DNA from: a virus
Lineage: Duplodnaviria > Heunggongvirae > Uroviricota > Caudoviricetes
Direction: 5' to 3' (one strand)
IMG/VR virus record: IMGVR_UViG_2713896907_000007
Span: 1 to 31,177 of that record
DNA length: 31,177 nt
The notes below the pieces were generated by a model, which saw only the letters and a list, made by a program, of their open reading frames with translations, had not been told where the DNA came from and made no database searches. Shown here in pieces: positions 18,334-30,088 of this stretch (the stretch's first letter is position 1; every line of letters starts with the position of its first letter). Made by a program: the position numbers and the translations under genes.

Positions 18334-19188
18334 TCAGCAGTTCGTCATCAGGGCGTCACCGCCACCACCGGTGGCCTTGCTGCGGCGCTGCTGGGTCAGA
18401 CTTTCGGTGTGGTCGAGACTGTTTTTCAGGCGGGTGAATGCCTGGCTGGTTTCATCCACCTTGTCAGTCACCTCCTGCTTAAGTGCGGAAAAGGCGGTTT
18501 CCACCTCAGCGAGGCGCTGCTCAGTGGCGCTCAGTTTTTCCTGCACATGTTCAGCAACAGCGGTCACCGCTTCATGCACGTCATTCAGACGGGCGTCATC
18601 GCTGGCCTGTTTGCGGCCAAAAATGGATTTCACCTTTTCGGTCAGGGCGGTGAACACGGTTTCAGGCAGGTCTTCAAATTCCAGCTCAACAGGCGTTGCC
18701 ACTGAAATCAGGTTTTCAGGGCTTAATTTGAAGCGGTTCAGGGGGTTGTGTTTTGCCGTGCGGCAGAATTCCAGGTATTCCGTGCCGAGGCTTGCCGGGT
18801 CATCGGTGACGGCCAGACCCACCAGATAACATTTGCCGGTGTTGGCAAAGTTCGGCTGAATTTCCATTGAGGTGTAGACCTTCTGCGCGGCCTTGTTCAT
18901 CGCGATAAGGTCATCGGTCGGGGTGATTTTCGCAAACAGCGCCCATTTGCCTTTCAGCGCCGAATCATCGTCAATCTTTTCGGCCTTCAGCTCGGCCACA
19001 TCGCCATAACGCTTAAAAATGCCGTCAGGCAGGATGCCGCGCAGATGTTCCAGGTTAATGCGGCAACCATAGACTCGCGGGTCAAAGGTTTCGGCCATTT
19101 CCTGAATATCCTGCGCACTGATGACACGCCCGTCACAGGTGTCACCCTCAACGCCGATACGAAAGAATTTTGAGACTTTTTTTGCCAT
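18334..19188 (-). CDS. O: Capsid scaffolding protein O (284 aa)
   Basis: ORF 18334..19254 trimmed to internal Met MAKKVSKFFRIGVEGDTCDGR..., giving 284 aa like P2 gpO. Confidence 0.88.
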   Translation of the reverse strand: MAKKVSKFFRIGVEGDTCDGRVISAQDIQEMAETFDPRVYGCRINLEHLRGILPDGIFKRYGDVAELKAEKIDDDSALKGKWALFAKITPTDDLIAMNKAAQKVYTSMEIQPNFANTGKCYLVGLAVTDDPASLGTEYLEFCRTAKHNPLNRFKLSPENLISVATPVELEFEDLPETVFTALTEKVKSIFGRKQASDDARLNDVHEAVTAVAEHVQEKLSATEQRLAEVETAFSALKQEVTDKVDETSQAFTRLKNSLDHTESLTQQRRSKATGGGGDALMTNC

Positions 19189-19361
19189 TGTCAGGAGTCC
19201 TGAATAGTGATTAGAGGAGTCACATGTCGGCATCAGTTTCCCGACGATGCGCATCCTCCGCCATCAGTCCCGGATGGCTTATCACTGACACAACAGCACC
19301 TTAGCGAATCGCAGGGCGCGACTCAGTAGCCTTGCCGTGTATTCATCACGGCGAGGTATTC
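19189..19361. promoter_or_regulatory. Divergent O/P intergenic region, presumed Ogr-dependent late promoters
   Basis: 173-bp gap between divergently transcribed O (minus) and P (plus). P2 has divergent late promoters here. Contains imperfect dyads (TGTCGG-N10-CCGACG at about 19225..19246 and GCCGTG-N7-CACGGC at 19334..19352), but I found no exact TGT-N12-ACA. Confidence 0.4.
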
Positions 19362-21134
19362 ATGACCATCACCACAGACACCACTCTTTTACACGACCCG
19401 CGTCGTCAGGCGGCGCTGCTGTACTGGCAGGGGTTTTCCGTGCCGCAGATTGCCGCCATGTTGCAGATGAAACGCCCGACGGTGCAGAGCTGGAAACAGC
19501 GCGACGGCTGGGACAGCGTTGCCCCCATCAGCCGTGTCGAAATGAGTCTGGAAGCGCGACTGACCCAGCTCATCATCAAACCGCAGAAAACCGGTGGTGA
19601 CTTCAAGGAAATTGACCTGCTCGGACGCCAGATTGAACGACTGGCACGGGTAAACCGCTACAGTCAGACCGGCAACGAGGCAGACCTTAATCCGAACGTC
19701 GCTAACCGCAACAAAGGCGGGCGTCGCAAACCGAAAAAGAATTTTTTCAGTGACGAGGCCATCGAAAAGCTGGAGCAGATTTTCTTTGAGCAGTCTTTCG
19801 ACTATCAGTTGCACTGGTATCGCGCCGGGCTTGAGCACCGCATCCGCGATATCCTGAAATCCCGCCAGATTGGCGCGACGTTTTATTTTTCCCGCGAGGC
19901 GCTGCTGCGTGCCCTGAAAACCGGTCATAACCAGATTTTTCTGTCGGCCAGTAAAACGCAGGCGTATGTGTTCCGCGAATACATCATCGCCTTTGCCCGT
20001 CTGGTTGACGTTGACCTGACCGGTGACCCGATTGTCCTGGGCAATAACGGCGCAAAACTGATTTTTCTCGGCACCAACTCCAACACCGCGCAGAGTCATA
20101 ACGGCGACCTGTACGTCGATGAGATTTTCTGGATCCCGAATTTTCAGGTACTGCGTAAGGTGGCATCAGGTATGGCCTCACAGAGTCACCTGCGCTCGAC
20201 CTATTTCTCCACCCCGTCCACGCTGGCGCACGACGCCTACCCGTTCTGGTCGGGTGAACTGTTTAACCGGGGACGCGCCAGCGCCGCCGAACGCGTGGAA
20301 ATCGACGTCAGTCATAACGCCCTTGCCGGTGGGCTTCTCTGTGCGGACGGCCAGTGGCGACAGATTGTCACCATTGAGGACGCCCTGAAAGGCGGCTGCA
20401 CGCTGTTCGACATTGAGCAGCTCAAACGCGAAAACAGCGCCGACGATTTTAAAAACCTGTTCATGTGTGAATTTGTTGACGACAAGGCATCGGTGTTCCC
20501 GTTCGAGGAGCTGCAACGCTGCATGGTCGACACGCTGGAAGAATGGGAAGACTATGCGCCGTTTGCCGCCAATCCGTTCGGCTCCCGCCCGGTATGGATT
20601 GGTTACGACCCGTCACACCGTGGCGACAGCGCCGGATGCGTGGTACTGGCACCGCCGGTGGTGGCCGGTGGCAAATTCAGAATACTTGAGCGTCACCAGT
20701 GGAAAGGCATGGACTTTGCCACCCAGGCGGAATCCATCCGCAAACTCACCGAAAAATACAACGTCGAATACATCGGTATTGATGCCACCGGCCTCGGTGT
20801 CGGCGTGTTCCAGCTCGTGCGCTCGTTCTATCCCGCCGCGCGTGATATCCGCTACACGCCGGAAATGAAAACCGCAATGGTGCTCAAGGCAAAAGACGTT
20901 ATCCGCCGTGGCTGTCTGGAATACGACGTCAGCGCCACCGACATCACCAGCTCGTTTATGGCTATCCGCAAGACCATGACCAGCAGCGGACGCAGCGCCA
21001 CCTATGAGGCCAGCCGCAGCGAGGAAGCCAGCCACGCCGACCTCGCCTGGGCGACCATGCACGCCCTGTTAAATGAGCCACTCACCGCCGGTATCAGCAC
21101 CCCGCTGACATCCACCATTCTGGAGTTTTACTGA
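19362..21134 (+). CDS. P: Terminase large subunit P (590 aa)
   Basis: ORF 19332..21134 begins at a TTG; the ATG at 19362 (MTITTDTTLLHDPRRQ...) is preceded by GAGGT and gives about 590 aa like P2 gpP. Confidence 0.9.
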   Translation: MTITTDTTLLHDPRRQAALLYWQGFSVPQIAAMLQMKRPTVQSWKQRDGWDSVAPISRVEMSLEARLTQLIIKPQKTGGDFKEIDLLGRQIERLARVNRYSQTGNEADLNPNVANRNKGGRRKPKKNFFSDEAIEKLEQIFFEQSFDYQLHWYRAGLEHRIRDILKSRQIGATFYFSREALLRALKTGHNQIFLSASKTQAYVFREYIIAFARLVDVDLTGDPIVLGNNGAKLIFLGTNSNTAQSHNGDLYVDEIFWIPNFQVLRKVASGMASQSHLRSTYFSTPSTLAHDAYPFWSGELFNRGRASAAERVEIDVSHNALAGGLLCADGQWRQIVTIEDALKGGCTLFDIEQLKRENSADDFKNLFMCEFVDDKASVFPFEELQRCMVDTLEEWEDYAPFAANPFGSRPVWIGYDPSHRGDSAGCVVLAPPVVAGGKFRILERHQWKGMDFATQAESIRKLTEKYNVEYIGIDATGLGVGVFQLVRSFYPAARDIRYTPEMKTAMVLKAKDVIRRGCLEYDVSATDITSSFMAIRKTMTSSGRSATYEASRSEEASHADLAWATMHALLNEPLTAGISTPLTSTILEFY

Positions 21135-22168
21135 TGAGCAAGAAAAAAGGGAAAACACCGCAACCTGCGGCAAAAAAAATGACCGCCAGCGCCCCGAAAA
21201 TGGAGGCATTCACCTTTGGTGAGCCGGTGCCGGTGCTCGACCGCCGTGACATTCTGGATTACGTCGAATGTATCAGTAACGGCAGATGGTATGAGCCGCC
21301 GGTCAGCTTTACCGGTCTGGCAAAAAGCCTGCGTGCTGCCGTACATCACAGCTCACCGATTTACGTCAAACGTAATATTCTGGCTTCAACGTTTATCCCG
21401 CACCCGTGGCTGTCCCAGCAGGATTTCAGCCGCTTTGTGCTGGATTTTCTGGTGTTCGGTAATGCGTTTCTGGAAAAGCGTTACAGCACCACCGGCAAGG
21501 TCATCAGACTGGAAACCTCACCGGCAAAATATACCCGCCGTGGTGTGGAAGAGGATGTTTACTGGTGGGTGCCGTCCTTCAACGAGCCGACAGCCTTCGC
21601 GCCCGGTTCCGTGTTTCACCTGCTGGAGCCGGATATTAATCAGGAGCTGTACGGCCTGCCGGAATATCTCAGCGCCCTTAACTCTGCCTGGCTGAATGAG
21701 TCAGCCACGCTGTTCCGCCGCAAGTATTACGAAAACGGCGCGCATGCCGGATACATCATGTACGTCACCGATGCCGTGCAGGACCGCAACGATATCGAAA
21801 TGCTTCGCGAAAACATGGTGAAGTCGAAAGGCCGCAATAACTTTAAAAACCTGTTTCTCTATGCCCCACAGGGGAAAGCCGACGGCATTAAAATTATCCC
21901 GCTCAGTGAAGTGGCGACGAAGGACGATTTTTTTAATATCAAAAAAGCCAGCGCCGCTGACCTGCTGGATGCGCACCGCATCCCCTTTCAGTTGATGGGC
22001 GGCAAGCCAGAGAACGTCGGGTCGCTGGGTGATATTGAGAAAGTGGCAAAGGTCTTTGTCCGCAATGAGCTTATCCCGTTACAGGACAGGATTCGGGAAA
22101 TAAACGGCTGGCTCGGTCAGGAGGTCATCCGCTTTAAAAACTACTCACTGGACACTGACAACGGCTGA
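21134..22168 (+). CDS. Q: Portal protein Q (344 aa)
   Basis: 344-aa ORF whose start overlaps the P stop; size and position next to cos match P2 gpQ. Confidence 0.92.
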   Translation: MSKKKGKTPQPAAKKMTASAPKMEAFTFGEPVPVLDRRDILDYVECISNGRWYEPPVSFTGLAKSLRAAVHHSSPIYVKRNILASTFIPHPWLSQQDFSRFVLDFLVFGNAFLEKRYSTTGKVIRLETSPAKYTRRGVEEDVYWWVPSFNEPTAFAPGSVFHLLEPDINQELYGLPEYLSALNSAWLNESATLFRRKYYENGAHAGYIMYVTDAVQDRNDIEMLRENMVKSKGRNNFKNLFLYAPQGKADGIKIIPLSEVATKDDFFNIKKASAADLLDAHRIPFQLMGGKPENVGSLGDIEKVAKVFVRNELIPLQDRIREINGWLGQEVIRFKNYSLDTDNG

Positions 22169-22337: not shown

Positions 22338-22356
22338 GTGCTTTCCCCGCCTCGCC
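22338..22356. other. cos: cos cohesive-end site (19 nt)
   Basis: GTGCTTTCCCCGCCTCGCC is the exact reverse complement of GGCGAGGCGGGGAAAGCAC, which I recall as the P2 19-nt cohesive end; it lies about 170 bp past the Q stop in a C/A-rich tract, as in P2. Confidence 0.75.
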
Positions 22357-22512
22357 CGCCCGCTTCATGGGGCGGTTTTAATGCAGTTGCAATACCGCTT
22401 TTGAGCCACGCCAGTCTTGGCGGACGCACGGCCAGAACATGTAACTCCGGCACATGCAAAACCATGCACATATTGCATGCACAGATAAAAACGGGGATAT
22501 CACAGAAAAAGC

Positions 22513-22543
22513 ACAAAAAAAACCGGCATTCATGATGCCGGTT
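22513..22543 (-). terminator. Intrinsic terminator for leftward transcripts leaving the cargo island (possibly bidirectional)
   Basis: 9-bp stem AACCGGCAT/ATGCCGGTT (22521..22529 and 22535..22543) with 5-nt loop; on the minus strand it is followed by a run of eight T (complement of 22515..22522). Confidence 0.65.
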
Positions 22544-22681
22544 CTGATCAATTTTTATAGTTGTCACTGGCCGCGCAATGCACCAATCACACTGTTGAGG
22601 CACGTACTGACAACAATTAGCAGAAAAATCGTTGTCCACGGACTTTCATAAATGTGAGATAACTTCTTGATATAGATCATT

Positions 22682-22813
22682 TTATTTATTCATTCTGATG
22701 TGATTTAACAGGTATTTTATAACGACCATAAGCTCATCTTTACTGGCTTGTTCAACCATTTTTTCAGTGTAACTGTCCACCTCGCGAGAGCTCAGGTCGT
22801 TATTTAAGGCCAT
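22682..22813 (-). CDS. Small hypothetical protein (43 aa from the SD-preceded Met; ORF could extend to 22963)
   Basis: ORF 22682..22963 overlaps the start of the opposite-strand ORF at 22875; the internal Met at 22813 has an AGAGG SD about 9 nt upstream. Start is uncertain and the protein may not be real. Confidence 0.3.
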   Translation of the reverse strand: MALNNDLSSREVDSYTEKMVEQASKDELMVVIKYLLNHIRMNK

Positions 22814-22874
22814 TACAGTTAGCCTCTTTGCCCAGTCGGCATAAGGGTCTTTAATTGATGAAAGGGAACTATGC

Positions 22875-23312
22875 ATGTCCAAAAATCTCGAATTATTCAA
22901 CCAACAGACGGCAGAAATCTTTGCGGTGCTATGGGATAACTTTCCTGTACCACAAGTCATCACCTACAAAAAATTTAACGCCGCGTTACCTGATGACTAC
23001 TTTGACCAACTTAACTCACCAGAAATGAAAGCACTGAATCAGTTGCGTAGTGTGGTTGATGGCACATTCACTTTCCTAAGCGAAAACGGCTATATTCTGT
23101 ACGGAACAGACCATCAGACCGGTTTTCATGATGTGCGCCTGACCGAGAAAGCACTCGCGGTGCTCAACAAAAAACCCGAAGCACTTGGCGGTAATGAAAC
23201 GATGGGTGATAAAATTATCAGTGCAGTAAAAGACGGAACTCCAGGTGTAATTGCTGGAGCAGTGACAAACCTGTTGACTCTTGGCGTTAATTTTGTGACG
23301 TCAGCTTCATAG
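22875..23312 (+). CDS. Hypothetical 145-aa protein with hydrophobic Gly/Ala-rich C-terminal segment; unknown cargo gene
   Basis: ORF in the cos-A cargo island, convergent with the RT operon; C-terminus DGTPGVIAGAVTNLLTLGVNFV looks like a membrane helix. No recognisable catalytic motif. Confidence 0.5.
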   Translation: MSKNLELFNQQTAEIFAVLWDNFPVPQVITYKKFNAALPDDYFDQLNSPEMKALNQLRSVVDGTFTFLSENGYILYGTDHQTGFHDVRLTEKALAVLNKKPEALGGNETMGDKIISAVKDGTPGVIAGAVTNLLTLGVNFVTSAS

Positions 23313-23338: not shown

Positions 23339-23381
23339 AACGCCGCCTGCATCGAAAGTAAATTCCTGCACTTGCGGCGTT
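23339..23381. terminator. Hairpin between convergent genes, possible bidirectional terminator
   Basis: 8-bp arms AACGCCGC (23339..23346) and GCGGCGTT (23374..23381) around a 27-nt loop, between the 145-aa ORF stop (23312) and the RT stop (23436). Weak: large loop, no clean T-run. Confidence 0.35.
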
Positions 23382-23435
23382 ACTAACGCCAAGTCATTTT
23401 AATTATTGATGCTTTTATGCAATACATTCAATATG

Positions 23436-24386
23436 TTAATTTGCAGTATTAGCCTTTAAAGTAAGCACCTTCGATTTGTAACGTTGCTCAATCACTCCCA
23501 TTGAATGCAAACGGCCAAAGAGCTTTTTGGCAATGATTGTTTCTCTCGCATTTTCGGCGTCTTTAATTATTTTCCAATAATCTATTTCCCTAGCCATCAA
23601 AAAATGCTGCTCATTCCTAACTTTTAAAGCATTACCGAATACAATAACTCCAGTTACCAACTTAGGCTTATCTCTGGCATATAATTTTGTTTTCGTTGGG
23701 TGTATAACATGTCCATGCTTATTAACGATCTTACGAATTACAGCGCAAAACAATCGATTTACGTTACTACCTGAAAAAGTGAGATCATCAACATAAACAG
23801 TCATGTTAACTCGTAACTTTTGGCAAAGTTGATATATTTCACCAAACATTCTTGAATTTGCAAAATATGCCAACGGCATACTGATGCGACTACCTGTTGG
23901 TAATCGGTCATGACAAGTACATATGTGGGACAAAACATCAGCAACATCAGATGACATTTTCATCACCGAAAAGAAAAAAGAAAATATCATCCCTCTTGTA
24001 GTTGATGGAAAAAAAGCTTTAATATCTGTTGTCATCATCTTTTCATTATTAAGATGAGCTTTAGCATTCGTCACATTAGAGCACTTCTTCTTCCCCGAGT
24101 GCAGATATTCTGGCAAAGCAATCCGTGATAACAAACTTGCAATTCGTGTATGTACAAGTTCTAGTTTTTCTAAAGGCTTTTGTATTTTTCGTGCTTTTCC
24201 TTTTTTAGAAAGTTGCTCAAAAACGGAATAGTTTCCTTCATCTTTTCTCAAAGAGTATAATTCTTCAAGACTAACACAAAGCAAATTCGCCAGTTTTCTT
24301 TTACTTTTGAGTTTGTAAAATGGCGAATCCATTATGTCATAAGATTTATTTTTAGTATTAACCTTAAGCTTTTTCCGTTTTTTCAT
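23436..24386 (-). CDS. Reverse transcriptase, retron-type (316 aa)
   Basis: Motifs seen in translation: NAKAH (NAxxH, aa 107-111), TDIKAFFPS (motif A Asp), LPTGSRISMPLA (motif B region), YVDD (motif C, aa 198-201, DNA 23784..23795) and KLVTGVIV (VTG, aa 244-246). Size and motif order resemble retron RTs such as Ec86 as I recall them. AT-rich. Confidence 0.85.
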   Translation of the reverse strand: MKKRKKLKVNTKNKSYDIMDSPFYKLKSKRKLANLLCVSLEELYSLRKDEGNYSVFEQLSKKGKARKIQKPLEKLELVHTRIASLLSRIALPEYLHSGKKKCSNVTNAKAHLNNEKMMTTDIKAFFPSTTRGMIFSFFFSVMKMSSDVADVLSHICTCHDRLPTGSRISMPLAYFANSRMFGEIYQLCQKLRVNMTVYVDDLTFSGSNVNRLFCAVIRKIVNKHGHVIHPTKTKLYARDKPKLVTGVIVFGNALKVRNEQHFLMAREIDYWKIIKDAENARETIIAKKLFGRLHSMGVIEQRYKSKVLTLKANTAN

Positions 24387-24684
24387 TTTTATTACTTACC
24401 CACTCCAGAACATCCAGAACTTTACCGGCTAAATTTAAACGCAATCGCTTAGACAAACGGCCTTGCGTGCCTAATGATTCCGAAAAGAATACTAAAGAGG
24501 ATACTGGTATGTCGAAATGGGAGGCGTAACGCTCTAAGACTTCAATCGACGGTGACCAAACTCCGCTTTCAAGCGATACTATTTTGTCTTTTGGAATACC
24601 TAAAGATGAAGATAACTCAACTATTGATTCTTTATGGTATTGCCTTATTAAACGAAGGGCTTTATGTAACATAGGCAACTCCAT
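24364..24684 (-). CDS. XRE-family helix-turn-helix protein (106 aa), co-operonic with the RT
   Basis: LRLIRQYHKESIVELSSSLGIPKDKIVSLESG fits a Cro/C1-type HTH; its 3' end overlaps the RT start by 23 nt, implying translational coupling. Confidence 0.75.
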   Translation of the reverse strand: MELPMLHKALRLIRQYHKESIVELSSSLGIPKDKIVSLESGVWSPSIEVLERYASHFDIPVSSLVFFSESLGTQGRLSKRLRLNLAGKVLDVLEWVSNKNEKTEKA

Positions 24685-24708: not shown

Positions 24709-24864
24709 TTACTCACCACCCCCTTCTAAGTAGTCCAGTGCTCGAGTGACTAAATCAAACAGTCTAATACCCCATTTGAATAATTCCCAAGCATAACCAG
24801 CCCTCTTTTTCAGGTTTGACTTGTTCTGCGCCTGCTGTTCGTTGGTTAATTTATCATTCTTCAT
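24709..24864 (-). CDS. Small hypothetical protein (51 aa) at the head of the HTH-RT operon
   Basis: ATG at 24864 is preceded by a strong SD AAGGAG with a 6-nt spacer; it ends 24 nt before the HTH start. The longer ORF 24709..25122 upstream of this Met runs through hairpin-rich DNA and is probably not coding. Confidence 0.45.
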   Translation of the reverse strand: MKNDKLTNEQQAQNKSNLKKRAGYAWELFKWGIRLFDLVTRALDYLEGGGE

Positions 24865-25100
24865 GATTTGCTCCTTATGCCCATAGTGTGCAAACGGTAT
24901 GTCTGCTCCAACACTATGGTTCGCCCTCATAAGGATGAGATTGAACAGCACTAGCTCCCTGCTCCACGAACCCTTTGTCGCCCAAAGGGTTCGAATTCCC
25001 ATACGCCATACCACCTGGTCCTGTGACTCTTGTCGCTGGCAGGGGCGTTGCGCGGGGTAAACGGTAGAAAGTGTTAACTTTCCACGGGTAAAAAATACCC
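24865..25100 (-). ncRNA. Candidate structured non-coding RNA (possible retron msr/msd) upstream of the RT operon
   Basis: Non-coding stretch with several hairpins: 9-bp stem 24881..24889/24911..24919; 11-bp stem CGAACCCTTTG/CAAAGGGTTCG 24967..24993 with 5-nt loop; 6-bp stem 25067..25082; 5-bp stem 25086..25100. A retron RT needs an adjacent msr/msd RNA. Boundaries and a1/a2 repeats not identified. Confidence 0.25.
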
Positions 25101-25281
25101 AATTGATGGCGATGTATCTCACTAACTAACCAATAATTGCATCATAACAAGTAAACCGTTGTATTTGATCTTTCTATATATAATATTTTTTCATATAAAA
25201 CCAAACATTAACAACAAAGAAGAATAACACATATTAAAGCGATATACGATATACGTTCATTACATTGAATTTTAAAGTGTT
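25101..25281 (-). promoter_or_regulatory. AT-rich intergenic region between A and the RT cassette, presumed cassette promoter
   Basis: About 180 bp of very AT-rich DNA containing a tandem GATATAC GATATAC near 25241..25254; only weak -35/-10 candidates on the minus strand (TTGTTA at 25150..25145). Confidence 0.3.
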
Positions 25282-27570
25282 TTATATGAAAAATGACACG
25301 CCATCTTGAAACCCGAACCACTCATTAGCAACCAGATACGTGAATTTTTTCCCGCCATAATTTACGGTTGCCCCACGCGCCAGCGCCTCAAGCTCCCATC
25401 GCTGCGGCCTGATACCGTTCTGAGCAAGGTCAACGCGGATACGGGTAATTTGCATTCGTTCCGACCGGGTCAGTCTGGCCGATGGTGCCATTTCATACTG
25501 TTTTAACGGGCTTCCGTTTCTCTGCTGACGATTTGGTGTTCTCAGCCCGTGTTTTAATGCGTCCCTGAGCGCCCTCACGACCTCCGGGTCATTCCATTCG
25601 ATAACACCGTCATCAACCAGATTAAGCACTGCTGCGGCGTGCTCAGAAGGTGTGGGAGCCGGTAACGAAGTATCACCACCGGAGAGCTTTCCACAGTTAT
25701 TGACAGGACTCCGAGGCGCGGCGATGCCGCTTTTTAAAGTCAAAGGCTCAACGACCGGCACTTTCGGAACAATGCGCCAGTCCGTCGTTCTGGTGATATG
25801 AATATGACGCGCGCCGAGATGCGGCGCGTAAATGCCGACCACTCTCTCGACTTCTTCCTCGTACTCGTTAACTTCATCCGACGGACTACGGGCGACCCTG
25901 ACAGTCTGACAATCGCGCGGGACATTTGCCCCACCCTGCGCGCTGATATACAGCGCAAAATCGCCACTGTCTGCGGCAGCGCGTGCAGCCTCGACGCGTT
26001 CGTCAAACTCATCAGCAATGCTGACGCCGCGAGGTAATTTGCGTAGTTCACGGTAAGCCCCCATTGTCGGCAGGCCAACCGTTTTAAATTGCGGAATGCG
26101 CCACGTTGACGCCCATGCGGTAACAGCCGCGGCAGTGTCTTTCAGCGGCCTGCCGGTATCGTTATCGAGCTGACCATCCAGTGCATAGCCGTCGATGTTT
26201 TTTGAAATGTATTTCGCGATATACCCCGCAGCACCGCCCCGGTTAAGGTGTTTTGCCTGAAAACGGTTTCGCGCGGCTCCTCTTTCGTCGCCATCCTCTT
26301 TGAGCGCATAGCGACGCATGATTTCGATAATCTGGTTACGCTGGCGCGGATTACAAAAAAGCATCATATGCCAGTGCGGCGTTCCGTCGTGGTGTGGCTC
26401 GACGACACGCAAACCGTAGACCTGTAAATCATTATCCTTGAATGCCGTGCGCATCAGGCTCCAGATACGGCAGAGATAACGCTGCGCATCCTTTGGATTA
26501 AATGCCTCATCGTTCCAGCCGTGATTTAGCTGGACGGTTTTACTTTCGCCTTTTCTGACCTGACGTGTCGGGTGATACTTTGACGGCGCGGTCAGCGTGA
26601 TAAACATCCCCACATCACCCTCTGCTGCGGCGTAACGCTCAATACCAGCAATGGTGTTCATCAGCTCCATCCGGCGAATTTCAGGATTAGAAATACTGCC
26701 CATCACCTTACTGATAAGGTCGATGCGCTCGCCGGTTTCCCTGTTTTCAAGGTCACACGATTTAAGAAATTCCAGATTTGCCTGGCGGCGCGCACGCACA
26801 TCACGAATGGCATGTTTACTGGCATAAGGAGAACGGTCTTTATTGACCTCCCCGACAGCTATCAGTAACGCCTCATGCCAGCGCATACGCTGGCCTTTAA
26901 GCTGATGAGTCCACCACTCATCGTTAAACAGGCGGGCAATGGCAGAATATGCCTGCCTCGTGGTCATCTGTCCTTTACGGTATTTTTTCCAGTAGAGCGG
27001 GGAAATATTGAAAGCACGTGCAGCGCCAGCAACATGACCATAGAGGTGAGCCTGCGCCTCATCCGTAAACAGCGATTCTTTTTCGCCATGTGCATCAACC
27101 CAGGTATCGCAGAGTTCCTCATACATCATGAAAAGCTGCGATGAGATACGGGCAGCAAACTTTTTCAGCTCCTTGTCATTCATTCCCGGCAGGCGCGCAT
27201 AGTGGTCACGCTCTGCCAGAAACAGCAACGACGCGTCGGTGTTCATTTCATGGCGCTGATTCACACGCTCAATGCGCGGCCATAAACGACGCTGAAAAGT
27301 GGATGTGAGGAAATAAAACCCGTGCACCGGGCTTTTATTGCGCCGGATGTAGTCATAACGTGAAGTAAACAGCGAGCGCAAAAAGTAAGGCAGGCGGTTA
27401 ATCGTGGATAAAACACCTTGCACCTGACGCATCTCGTCACGTGTAAGGGGTCTTTCGCGCCCGACAGCCTCGCGTGGCGCGTTCCATGCATAAGCACCGG
27501 TAAACGTCTTACCGGTGCCTGCGGCAAATGCTGACGGAGGGACAAAACGCCCGGAGGCTTTAACGGCCAT
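25282..27570 (-). CDS. A: Replication initiation protein A (rolling-circle endonuclease, about 762 aa)
   Basis: ORF 25282..27612 trimmed to MAVKASGRFVPPSAFAAGTGKTF..., which avoids overlap with the upstream gene and gives a length close to P2 gpA (761 aa). Confidence 0.9.
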   Translation of the reverse strand: MAVKASGRFVPPSAFAAGTGKTFTGAYAWNAPREAVGRERPLTRDEMRQVQGVLSTINRLPYFLRSLFTSRYDYIRRNKSPVHGFYFLTSTFQRRLWPRIERVNQRHEMNTDASLLFLAERDHYARLPGMNDKELKKFAARISSQLFMMYEELCDTWVDAHGEKESLFTDEAQAHLYGHVAGAARAFNISPLYWKKYRKGQMTTRQAYSAIARLFNDEWWTHQLKGQRMRWHEALLIAVGEVNKDRSPYASKHAIRDVRARRQANLEFLKSCDLENRETGERIDLISKVMGSISNPEIRRMELMNTIAGIERYAAAEGDVGMFITLTAPSKYHPTRQVRKGESKTVQLNHGWNDEAFNPKDAQRYLCRIWSLMRTAFKDNDLQVYGLRVVEPHHDGTPHWHMMLFCNPRQRNQIIEIMRRYALKEDGDERGAARNRFQAKHLNRGGAAGYIAKYISKNIDGYALDGQLDNDTGRPLKDTAAAVTAWASTWRIPQFKTVGLPTMGAYRELRKLPRGVSIADEFDERVEAARAAADSGDFALYISAQGGANVPRDCQTVRVARSPSDEVNEYEEEVERVVGIYAPHLGARHIHITRTTDWRIVPKVPVVEPLTLKSGIAAPRSPVNNCGKLSGGDTSLPAPTPSEHAAAVLNLVDDGVIEWNDPEVVRALRDALKHGLRTPNRQQRNGSPLKQYEMAPSARLTRSERMQITRIRVDLAQNGIRPQRWELEALARGATVNYGGKKFTYLVANEWFGFQDGVSFFI

Positions 27571-27835
27571 ATGAGCCAAAAGCCTCTGAACAACGCCTGC
27601 TGAGTTGCTCAACCTGCGCGTTTAAATCAGCAAAAGACTTTGCGCTTCCGGTCAGAATATCGTGATGCATCAGGCCGGAAACGAGCTGGCTTAATTTCGG
27701 GTAATAACCAACCACCGCCAGCCATTCCTGACCGGCGTTTTTACCGCTTTCCGCTCTCTTTTTCTCGTGGAGAATAAACTGAAAGCTGTCACTGGTAACG
27801 ACATAACGTTCGCCAATTTCAATACGAATGCTCAT
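27560..27835 (-). CDS. Hypothetical protein (91 aa), P2 orf83-like
   Basis: 91-aa ORF directly upstream of A in the early operon. Confidence 0.75.
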   Translation of the reverse strand: MSIRIEIGERYVVTSDSFQFILHEKKRAESGKNAGQEWLAVVGYYPKLSQLVSGLMHHDILTGSAKSFADLNAQVEQLSRRCSEAFGSYGR

Positions 27836-29323: not shown

Positions 29324-29695
29324 TTAAGCCGCACGGCCATGTCTTGATTTGCTGTAACTAATGCGATTTTTCCAGTCATGCCATTCTGTCGGAGCTTCAT
29401 CAACTAGCTGGGCTGCGTACTTGTCCCACTCACGGCGATTAATCCATAATTCAGCTTTCCCTCTTGGTTTTAATGGGTCTGTCATGTAGAAGGCTGGCAG
29501 CTTTCCTGCTTTAGCCATTTCAGCCACCGCGCGTGGTGTCTTACCGATGTAAAGAGCAAAACCTTCTTTCGACAGCAAATCAGATGGGCGCTCTGAAATC
29601 TGAATGCTTTTACGTTTGGCTTCATTTTCGAAACTTGCCTCATCGCTAGTTGGACAAGAAATTTCTACATTTGTCGTCACTTTGCTATCCTCCAT
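29324..29695 (-). CDS. cox: Cox-like excisionase/transcriptional regulator (up to 123 aa)
   Basis: Core FALYIGKTPRAVAEMAKAGKLPAFYMTDP resembles the P2 Cox HTH region (..IGKSTGAVRRMIDKGKLPVIDMTDP) as I recall it; first gene of the leftward early operon, divergent from C. N-terminus about 29 aa longer than P2 Cox, so the true start may lie downstream (a GTG at codon 6 follows GGAGGA). Confidence 0.75.
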   Translation of the reverse strand: MEDSKVTTNVEISCPTSDEASFENEAKRKSIQISERPSDLLSKEGFALYIGKTPRAVAEMAKAGKLPAFYMTDPLKPRGKAELWINRREWDKYAAQLVDEAPTEWHDWKNRISYSKSRHGRAA

Positions 29696-29788
29696 AAGAT
29701 TTGCGATTCACCAACTGGAGCCATCTAGAGCCTTTTTGAGCAAATCACAAATTGCCAAGTAACAATATAATTGGAGATTAGCAAAATT
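29696..29788. promoter_or_regulatory. Lysis-lysogeny switch region (divergent Pe/Pc promoters and operators, inferred)
   Basis: 93-bp gap between divergent cox and C; in P2 this holds the face-to-face promoters and the C operators. Imperfect direct repeats GATTCACC (29705..29712) and AATCACAA (29743..29750) noted but not verified as operators. Confidence 0.45.
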
Positions 29789-30088
29789 ATGTCAAGTGAA
29801 CAAAGTGAGAAACTAAAGCTCATCCGTGAATCTGAACGCCTTAAAACTAAGGAACTTGCTGAATTAATTGGAATTAATTACTACACATATCATGGATATG
29901 AATCAGGAAAATCAAAAATGCCTATGGAAGCAGGTATGAAGCTGTTTAAGCATCCACGCTTTCGCAAGTATCGTGACTGGTTCATGTTTGATGAAACAGA
30001 TCCAGCAGCTGGACAAATAGCCCCGGCTCTCGCACACATTGGGCAAGACTCAACAACCTTGCACCACTCAGACCAGAAGACTGGCTGA
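29789..30088 (+). CDS. C: Immunity repressor C (99 aa)
   Basis: ORF 29771..30088 begins at a TTG; the ATG at 29789 gives 99 aa, and the C-terminus ...GQIAPALAHIGQDSTTLHHSDQKTG closely resembles the P2 C repressor as I recall it. Confidence 0.85.
   Translation: MSSEQSEKLKLIRESERLKTKELAELIGINYYTYHGYESGKSKMPMEAGMKLFKHPRFRKYRDWFMFDETDPAAGQIAPALAHIGQDSTTLHHSDQKTG

Follow-up and report, generated by a model that had tools for sequence, protein, structure and literature searches.

A start-on-start gene pair at the cos-proximal border of a defence hotspot in P2-like prophages

Divergent genes with overlapping 5′ ends form the excludon-type loci known from Listeria. Here, a gene pair whose divergent start codons share bases is described from a stretch of DNA of 31,177 nucleotides (nt) (positions 1 to 31,177 of the IMG/VR virus record IMGVR_UViG_2713896907_000007; hereafter, the window), which is a P2-like (Peduoviridae) prophage. 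The pair consists of the open reading frames (ORFs) ORF145 on the plus strand and ORF64 on the minus strand, and has a type VI retron as its neighbour. P2-like prophages are a major reservoir of Escherichia coli defence systems, and the hotspot next to their cohesive end (cos) is mined for new ones. This cos-proximal hotspot, named TO, holds diverse defence systems (Rousset et al. 2022, PMC9122126), and in the published P2 hotspot table the ORF145 protein (WP_000042038 and alleles) was entered only as "hypothetical" and was not among the tested systems. Type VI retrons are same-strand operons of non-coding RNA, small protein (SP), helix-turn-helix (HTH) and reverse transcriptase (RT) genes, and their toxic effector is the SP, encoded just upstream of the HTH (10.1101/2025.10.22.683967; 10.64898/2026.04.27.721009).

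Two genes joined at their start codons

Both ORFs are real protein-coding genes, since codon alignments gave median pairwise ratios of nonsynonymous to synonymous substitution of 0.08 for ORF145 (43 distinct alleles) and 0.185 for the small ORF (51 alleles), as expected under purifying selection. Database searches recovered 70 homologous clusters at 90% identity for the former and 53 for the latter, all of them from Enterobacterales. Among the PHROG profiles, ORF145 matched phrog_2266 over residues 1-142 (E 2.4e-61), and the longer, 93-codon minus-strand ORF that contains ORF64 (22682-22963) matched phrog_2454 with residues 30-93 only (E 3.5e-38), both being families of unknown function. In agreement with the sequence-only reading of the window, which recognized no motif in either gene, no significant match for ORF145 or ORF64 was found in Pfam, NCBIfam or PADLOC, and a Foldseek search of viral structures returned nothing below E 0.1.

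That reading had also described a plus-strand ORF of 145 amino acids, convergent with the RT gene, and a minus-strand ORF of 43 to 93 amino acids with an overlapping start. Both are present as described and the starts do overlap; the size and extent had to be corrected, as the small gene encodes 64 amino acids and the true coding overlap of the pair is 2 nt, not about 90 nt. The starts, which had been left open, can be assigned. Full-length homologs of the small ORF nearly all have 63-64 amino acids, and the 93-codon form is closed in several relatives (for example, the compared loci L003 and L019-L021), which places the start of ORF64 at the ATG at 22876. For ORF145, the first methionine fits the full-length PHROG match and every homolog. 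The ATG codons of ORF64 (22876-22874) and ORF145 (22875-22877) thus share two bases inside the tetranucleotide CATG (Table 1).

Each gene has its Shine-Dalgarno-like site inside the first codons of its partner, so both promoters must be intragenic, and from the positions of the ribosome-binding sites the two mRNAs would be complementary for no less than ~30 nt, a stretch that takes in the Shine-Dalgarno sites and start codons of both genes. The block GGAATTWTGCATG around the ORF145 site is conserved in both allele classes of ORF64 (see below), and the GenBank annotators of phage Midge placed a ribosome-binding site at the same spot as the ORF64 site at 22886-22890.

Wherever a related P2-like locus has the two genes together, the CATG overlap is kept, and it is also found in distant members of phrog_2266 with 30-34% identity, in the PhiKM-type and L007-type lineages. 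The partner in the PhiKM-type lineage, which comprises BcepMu-like E. coli prophages, is a protein of 71 amino acids belonging to phrog_4490, encoded by the first gene of a leftward operon containing the transposase; in L007/L008, a metagenomic element encoding Ogr/Delta, it is a phrog_25421 protein of 80 amino acids. The starts abut in the P2-like contigs L016/L096, with the sequence CATATG. No homology between the small partners of different lineages was detected by hhalign; in total, the head-to-head arrangement with overlapping or abutting starts involves three non-homologous partner families and four or more lineages of phrog_2266.

In the GenBank record of PhiKM (PQ738613.1 31077-31481; L005 3965-4369), the phrog_2266 homolog of 134 amino acids is unannotated, and its divergent partner of 71 amino acids is annotated as hypothetical. 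An 18-bp palindrome of PhiKM (+39 to +56) lies on the codons of the conserved IF(A/C) motif of the family (TGKIFC in PhiKM, TAEIFA in the window); it was considered as an operator and rejected, because the matching codons 13-20 of the P2-like genes show only average synonymous diversity.

The beginning of ORF145 outlasts the loss of the gene. In the P2-like loci L004 and L072-L082, most of ORF145 is deleted and its first 57 nt are kept, leaving a stub of 19 codons (MSKNLELFNQQT.E.FATL*; approximately +1 to +60 from the ATG). Similarly, the PhiKM-type prophages L094 and L095 (4001-4054) have lost the homolog and kept exactly 54 nt, so the end-points of independent deletions run parallel in two distant lineages, and the ribosome-binding site of ORF64 lies within the 54-57 nt that were spared. 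The synonymous diversity of ORF145 is 0.21-0.28 in codons 1-16, compared with 0.38 overall and 0.49-0.50 in codons 17-28. These patterns suggest that the large gene may contain a control element within its first ~55 nt.

The ORF64 product was modelled as a three-helix bundle with a mean predicted local distance difference test (pLDDT) score of 73, for which no informative fold match was obtained, and its invariant motifs are NNDLSSRE and LLNHIR. Among P2-like loci its alleles fall into two classes, with ~80-100% and ~55-62% identity to the window (for example, L056 versus L043), and these combine freely with the alleles of ORF145 and with P2-type or 186-type replication protein A (gpA), which implies recombination at or near the shared start.

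ORF145 and its family

The AlphaFold2 model of ORF145, built on 29 homologs, has pLDDT values of 83-89 over residues 10-100 and the order helix-strand-helix-helix-strand-strand, followed by helices at 91-97, 110-119 and 123-143, the last one with pLDDT below 50 in the monomer model. Residues ~1-100 are thus predicted to form a winged-helix domain with MarR/PadR-like topology. In the remote homology search proposed with the sequence-only reading, weak similarity to the family profile was seen in YjcQ, AspA and MarR, at their "LxxxGYI...LTxKG" helix-wing segment, and phmmer and profile searches of PDB sequences gave only leucine-rich-repeat noise and weak winged-helix matches. The matches to AspA and TubR, together with a partition system in the hotspot, raised a plasmid-partition reading, which was discarded since that system is StbA/Plasmid_stab_B, made of different genes.

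An exhaustive HMMER search (E ≤1e-3) assigned at least 653 clusters at 50% identity to phrog_2266, and the 150 best matches listed are mostly proteins of 125-170 amino acids aligned over most of their length, with a few shorter fragments. No meaningful Pfam domain and no Pfam or NCBIfam match to MarR or PadR was found in 62 sampled members; only stray matches to DUF4364 and DUF6293_C appeared among these and the window protein, and the alignment of the remote family contains no conserved stretch of 7-10 residues. phrog_2266 is a widespread accessory family of phages and integrons for which Pfam, NCBIfam and PADLOC have no model.

The C-terminus of ORF145 is hydrophobic and rich in Gly and Ala, as the sequence-only reading stated, and on this basis a membrane-active protein had been suggested. 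A transmembrane anchor was sought as a segment of ~19 residues with a Kyte-Doolittle mean of at least 1.6 that is conserved in the family. The C-terminal helix of ORF145 is uncharged and its best 19-residue mean is 1.52, at residue 124, with a borderline median of 1.56 in the enterobacterial clade; in the wider family, the median best segment is 1.0 and only one of the 62 members reaches 1.6. Remote homologs have a median of 6 charged residues in their last 30. Since charge and amphipathicity characterize this helix across the family, there is no support for a conserved transmembrane anchor. With a predicted winged helix over residues 1-100, the membrane-active reading is not supported at the level of the family. 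In the enterobacterial clade, where the helix is borderline, a membrane effector has become less likely, although ORF145 may associate peripherally with the membrane; plausible alternatives for this segment are a dimer interface like that of MarR proteins and an amphipathic, peripheral helix.

Many phrog_2266 members are solitary. They include single-gene cassettes in integron arrays of Vibrio and Marinobacter (L010-L013, L103-L104), which have acetyltransferase, AbiTii, DUF2726, Imm49 and ParE cassettes as neighbours, genes located before gemA/mor in the early operon of Mu-like phages, and a gene in the early region of phage NrS-1. Another member (L102 4001-4429) lies between the tape-measure gene and gpU in a P2-like tail operon, where it starts 8 nt past the end of the tape-measure gene and its last base (4429) is the first base of gpU. 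Additionally, a homolog with 69% identity was found in a Klebsiella aerogenes genomic island next to smpB and an insertion sequence (L024/L025 6001-8721), with a decayed ORF64 remnant upstream and a candidate defence gene, PDC-S06 (AAA_13 ATPase), 54 nt downstream. This island is outside any P2 prophage, and gene and cargo look as if they had moved together.

Here it is tentatively proposed that the pair serves at the border of the hotspot as a compact, bidirectional regulatory cassette, an explanation that is favoured as a possible one. The pair is a self-contained accessory cassette and forms the fixed cos-proximal border of the TO hotspot in one subset of P2-like phages. ORF145 would be a soluble, acidic winged-helix protein, dimeric through its N- and C-terminal helices, and such an interface would explain a hydrophobic C-terminal helix without a membrane; ORF64 would be an independent three-helix protein facing it. 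The expression of the two genes would be mutually antagonistic, through promoter interference or through antisense pairing of the 5′ ends, and ORF145, as a putative DNA-binding protein, would regulate the control region that the two genes share. The ORF145 unit is directed into the hotspot and may be read through into the single-gene defences located directly downstream in other phages; the retron of the window faces the other way and is separate from it.

Several observations weigh against this proposal. The family is acidic (median isoelectric point (pI) 5.1, with none of the 62 sampled members basic), the only basic position conserved in at least 80% of it is K92, after the wing, and the presumed recognition helix has no basic residue conserved across the family; at positions 113, 127 and 131, only 52-58% of the members have a basic residue. 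No sigma-70 consensus with 9 of 12 matches was found inside either 5′ coding region, where candidates picked by eye were weak, no Ogr-type late-promoter motif (TGT-N12-ACA) near the pair, and no inverted-repeat operator in 22800-22960. The low synonymous diversity and the common deletion end-points of ORF145 could reflect recombination at a highly conserved stretch, and a local regulator makes little sense for the many solitary members.

The uniform acidity and the lack of conserved basic residues for DNA contact would better suit a counter-defence or host-takeover protein, that is, an acidic winged helix that binds a host or rival protein instead of DNA and is carried as a mobile accessory gene, an alternative that is possible and rather doubtful. 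It is in line with the family members next to gemA/mor among the accessory early genes of Mu-like phages, with the NrS-1 member, which also lies in an early region, and with the HHpred match to T7 gp5.5/5.7 that was reported in the GenBank note on the homolog of phage Midge. However, this likeness was not reproduced when the family profile was compared by hhalign with the single T7 sequences, with probabilities of 0.2% for gp5.5 and 2.3% for gp5.7, this comparison being less powerful than an HHpred search against a PDB profile. The chromosomal integron cassettes are not obviously explained, and no target is known.

ORF145 could also act alone as an anti-phage protein, in abortive infection or superinfection exclusion, with a winged helix that senses a phage component and a C-terminal helix that acts on the membrane or oligomerizes to kill or block, in which case ORF64 would be unrelated or would tune the expression of ORF145. 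This is considered unlikely. The location in the P2 cos-proximal defence hotspot, the integron cassettes beside AbiTii, DUF2726 and toxin-antitoxin genes, the uncharged and borderline hydrophobic C-terminal helix of the enterobacterial proteins (1.52-1.73) and the homolog that travelled with PDC-S06 out of the prophage context speak for it. However, PADLOC gave no match even at E ≤1, most of the family has a charged, amphipathic C-terminal helix, and about one in six of the related P2-like loci has lost ORF145 by deletion. Members in lytic-cycle operons (Mu-like early and P2-like tail) are, moreover, placed where a gene protecting the lysogen would not be expressed.

A broader variant joins these ideas, in that phrog_2266 proteins would be widespread, self-contained defence or counter-defence effectors, mobile as single genes and repeatedly locked start-on-start to unrelated small genes as a mutually exclusive switch between lysogeny and the lytic cycle; it is regarded as improbable. 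A plainer description is that of winged-helix accessory or regulatory proteins of a known kind with a recurrent start-on-start arrangement. The likelihood left by the favoured bidirectional cassette and its four rivals, including the two discussed in the next section, belongs to some other explanation.

Hotspot border, cargo and retron

The order portal, cos, ORF64, ORF145, variable cargo and gpA is constant in more than 50 loci, with both P2-type gpA (~75-100% identity) and 186-type gpA (~37%). Apart from the retron, the cargo includes DinI-like proteins, a GNAT acetyltransferase, PDC-M48A/B, the AbiP2 reverse transcriptase, a GmrSD-like type IV restriction enzyme, Fic/PDC-S04 and Sel1-repeat proteins, or there is almost nothing. 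Co-directional cargo starts 54-162 nt past the ORF145 stop, as for AbiP2 (L062), the GmrSD-like enzyme (L069), Fic/PDC-S04 (L049), PDC-M48B (L003) and PDC-S06 (L024), and no terminator-like site was found in the three gaps that were scanned, those before AbiP2, the GmrSD-like enzyme and PDC-S06. These observations weakly support read-through out of the ORF145 unit into co-directional cargo, for which the pair would be the likely entry point of transcription into the hotspot. The cargo of the window, the retron, faces ORF145, and the hairpins at 23339-23390, which are likely the ends of both the ORF145 and the RT transcription units, separate the two. Taking the pair as the fixed border and not as retron cargo guards against its mis-assignment as a retron effector.

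A pair of small neighbouring genes in a defence hotspot, of which one has a hydrophobic helix, may recall a toxin-antitoxin module. This is very improbable, because either gene can be lost while the other persists: ORF145 is intact with an ORF64 pseudogene in the K. aerogenes island (L024) and without ORF64 in Kluyvera (L022), and ORF64 is intact where ORF145 is deleted (L004, L072-L082). The genes are also divergent and not co-transcribed, solitary phrog_2266 genes are common, and the partners are non-homologous between lineages.

The retron carries its own parts. RT and HTH genes gave strong matches to the PADLOC models RT_VI and HTH_VI, and the same search at E ≤1 gave no match to a retron accessory or effector for either ORF145 or ORF64. 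Upstream of the HTH gene, an ORF of 137 codons (24709-25122) is probably an over-extension of the candidate SP gene, since only its last 51 codons match phrog_15287 and the gene annotated by PGAP, and the stretch upstream of the candidate SP to ~25280, on the minus strand, would be a candidate msr-msd or hybrid-RNA region. On the published architecture, the retron appears complete without ORF145.

The sequence-only reading had offered, among its alternatives, an effector partner of the RT system, and adjacency as well as the recurrence of the combination favour it, as the RT is present in 12 of the 54 compared P2-like loci with ORF145 (collected from phage records, E. coli genomes, GTDB genomes and IMG/VR) and the RT junction in 36 of 91 E. 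coli genomes carrying the pair region. However, the toxin of a type VI operon is the SP, for which a candidate is present here; ORF145 is encoded on the strand opposite to the RT and behind the hairpins, with ORF64 separated from the RT by ORF145; and Peduovirus P22H1 has the retron cassette without the pair. Given the varied cargo, the RT in only 12 of 54 loci and P22H1, a role of ORF145, with or without ORF64, as an accessory effector or regulator of the retron is not supported and is the least credible of the explanations. That reading had also placed the genes in a defence hotspot, and this is supported, the pair being an autonomous accessory element there.

As for the setting, the pair lies between the portal gene and gpA and therefore within the TO hotspot. 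Positions 22338-22356 of the minus strand match exactly the 19-nt P2 cohesive-end sequence, GGCGAGGCGGGGAAAGCAC, and counted from this match ~330 nt separate the pair from the right end of the packaged genome. The only Rfam match was to the small RNA STnc240 at 22511-22591 on the minus strand, below threshold (27 bits, compared with a gathering score of 55) and driven by the terminator-like hairpin that follows ORF64. The longest ORF for gpA opens with TTG, and tblastn alignments with relatives often leave out the first few to ~40 residues, so that the actual start could be farther downstream. The prophage appears to have its own candidate immunity switch in divergent ORFs at ~29324-30088, away from the pair.

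Table 1. Features of the gene pair and its surroundings in the window
Feature	Position	Strand	Remarks
Scaffold, terminase and portal genes	18334-22168		
Intrinsic-terminator-like site	22519-22545	-	strong hairpin and T-run, ~140 nt past the ORF64 stop, before cos
ORF64	22682-22876	-	64 amino acids, three-helix protein (model), phrog_2454; stop codon 22682-22684
Shine-Dalgarno-like site of ORF145	22862-22867	+	AAGGGA, 7 nt before the ATG, inside ORF64 codons 4-5
CATG with overlapping divergent start codons	22874-22877		common bases 22875-22876
ORF145	22875-23312	+	145 amino acids, acidic (pI 4.9), predicted winged-helix protein, phrog_2266
First 57 nt of ORF145	22875-22931		proposed 5′ control region of ORF64; kept as 19-codon stub; low synonymous diversity
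Shine-Dalgarno-like site of ORF64	22886-22890	-	CGAGA (CGAGG in most relatives), 9 nt before the ATG, inside ORF145 codons 4-6
Hairpins between convergent ORF145 and RT	23339-23390		8-bp outer stem 23339-23346/23374-23381 in the minimum-free-energy fold
RT	23436-24386	-	PADLOC RT_VI, 1e-105
HTH	24364-24684	-	PADLOC HTH_VI, 8e-31
Candidate SP toxin	24709-24864	-	51 amino acids, phrog_15287; PGAP-annotated in a near-identical E. coli locus
Replication gene A (gpA)	25282-27612	-	

Comparison with known systems

Type VI retrons (Retron-Vpa2, Retron-Eco12, Retron-Sen3) resemble the locus in being its neighbour and in having a small protein with a hydrophobic C-terminal segment. However, their SP is encoded upstream of the HTH, on the RT strand and within the hybrid RNA, whereas ORF145 is three times larger, has a predicted winged-helix fold, is encoded on the opposite strand and is inherited separately from the RT.

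The closest protein likeness is to MarR/PadR regulators, which share with ORF145 a size of ~140-150 amino acids, a winged-helix core with extra N- and C-terminal helices and a divergent small neighbour; the segment "FLxENGYI...VRLTEKAL" of ORF145 resembles their recognition-helix and wing signature. Unlike these regulators, ORF145 has no Pfam match and belongs to an acidic family with no conserved basic contacts, many of whose members are solitary; there is no intergenic DNA between the overlapping starts, and no palindromic operator was found.

Similarly to the immunity switches of Mu (c/ner), P2 (C/cox) and 186 (cI/apl), a larger protein with a DNA-binding fold faces a protein of 64-80 amino acids across overlapping divergent control regions, and the partner in PhiKM heads the leftward transposase operon. 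In contrast to these switches, the pair is located at the cos end and followed by a terminator-like site, ORF145 can be deleted in resident prophages, and neither gene has sequence homology to the C, CI, c, Cox, Apl or Ner families.

As in excludon-type loci, the transcripts of the pair would have to overlap in antisense across both translation-initiation regions. The overlap differs from that of an excludon in being forced by the 2-nt overlap of the start codons and not by a long 5′ untranslated region. The start-on-start geometry offers a compact example of a forced overlap of antisense transcripts and promoters, and one that is easy to test.

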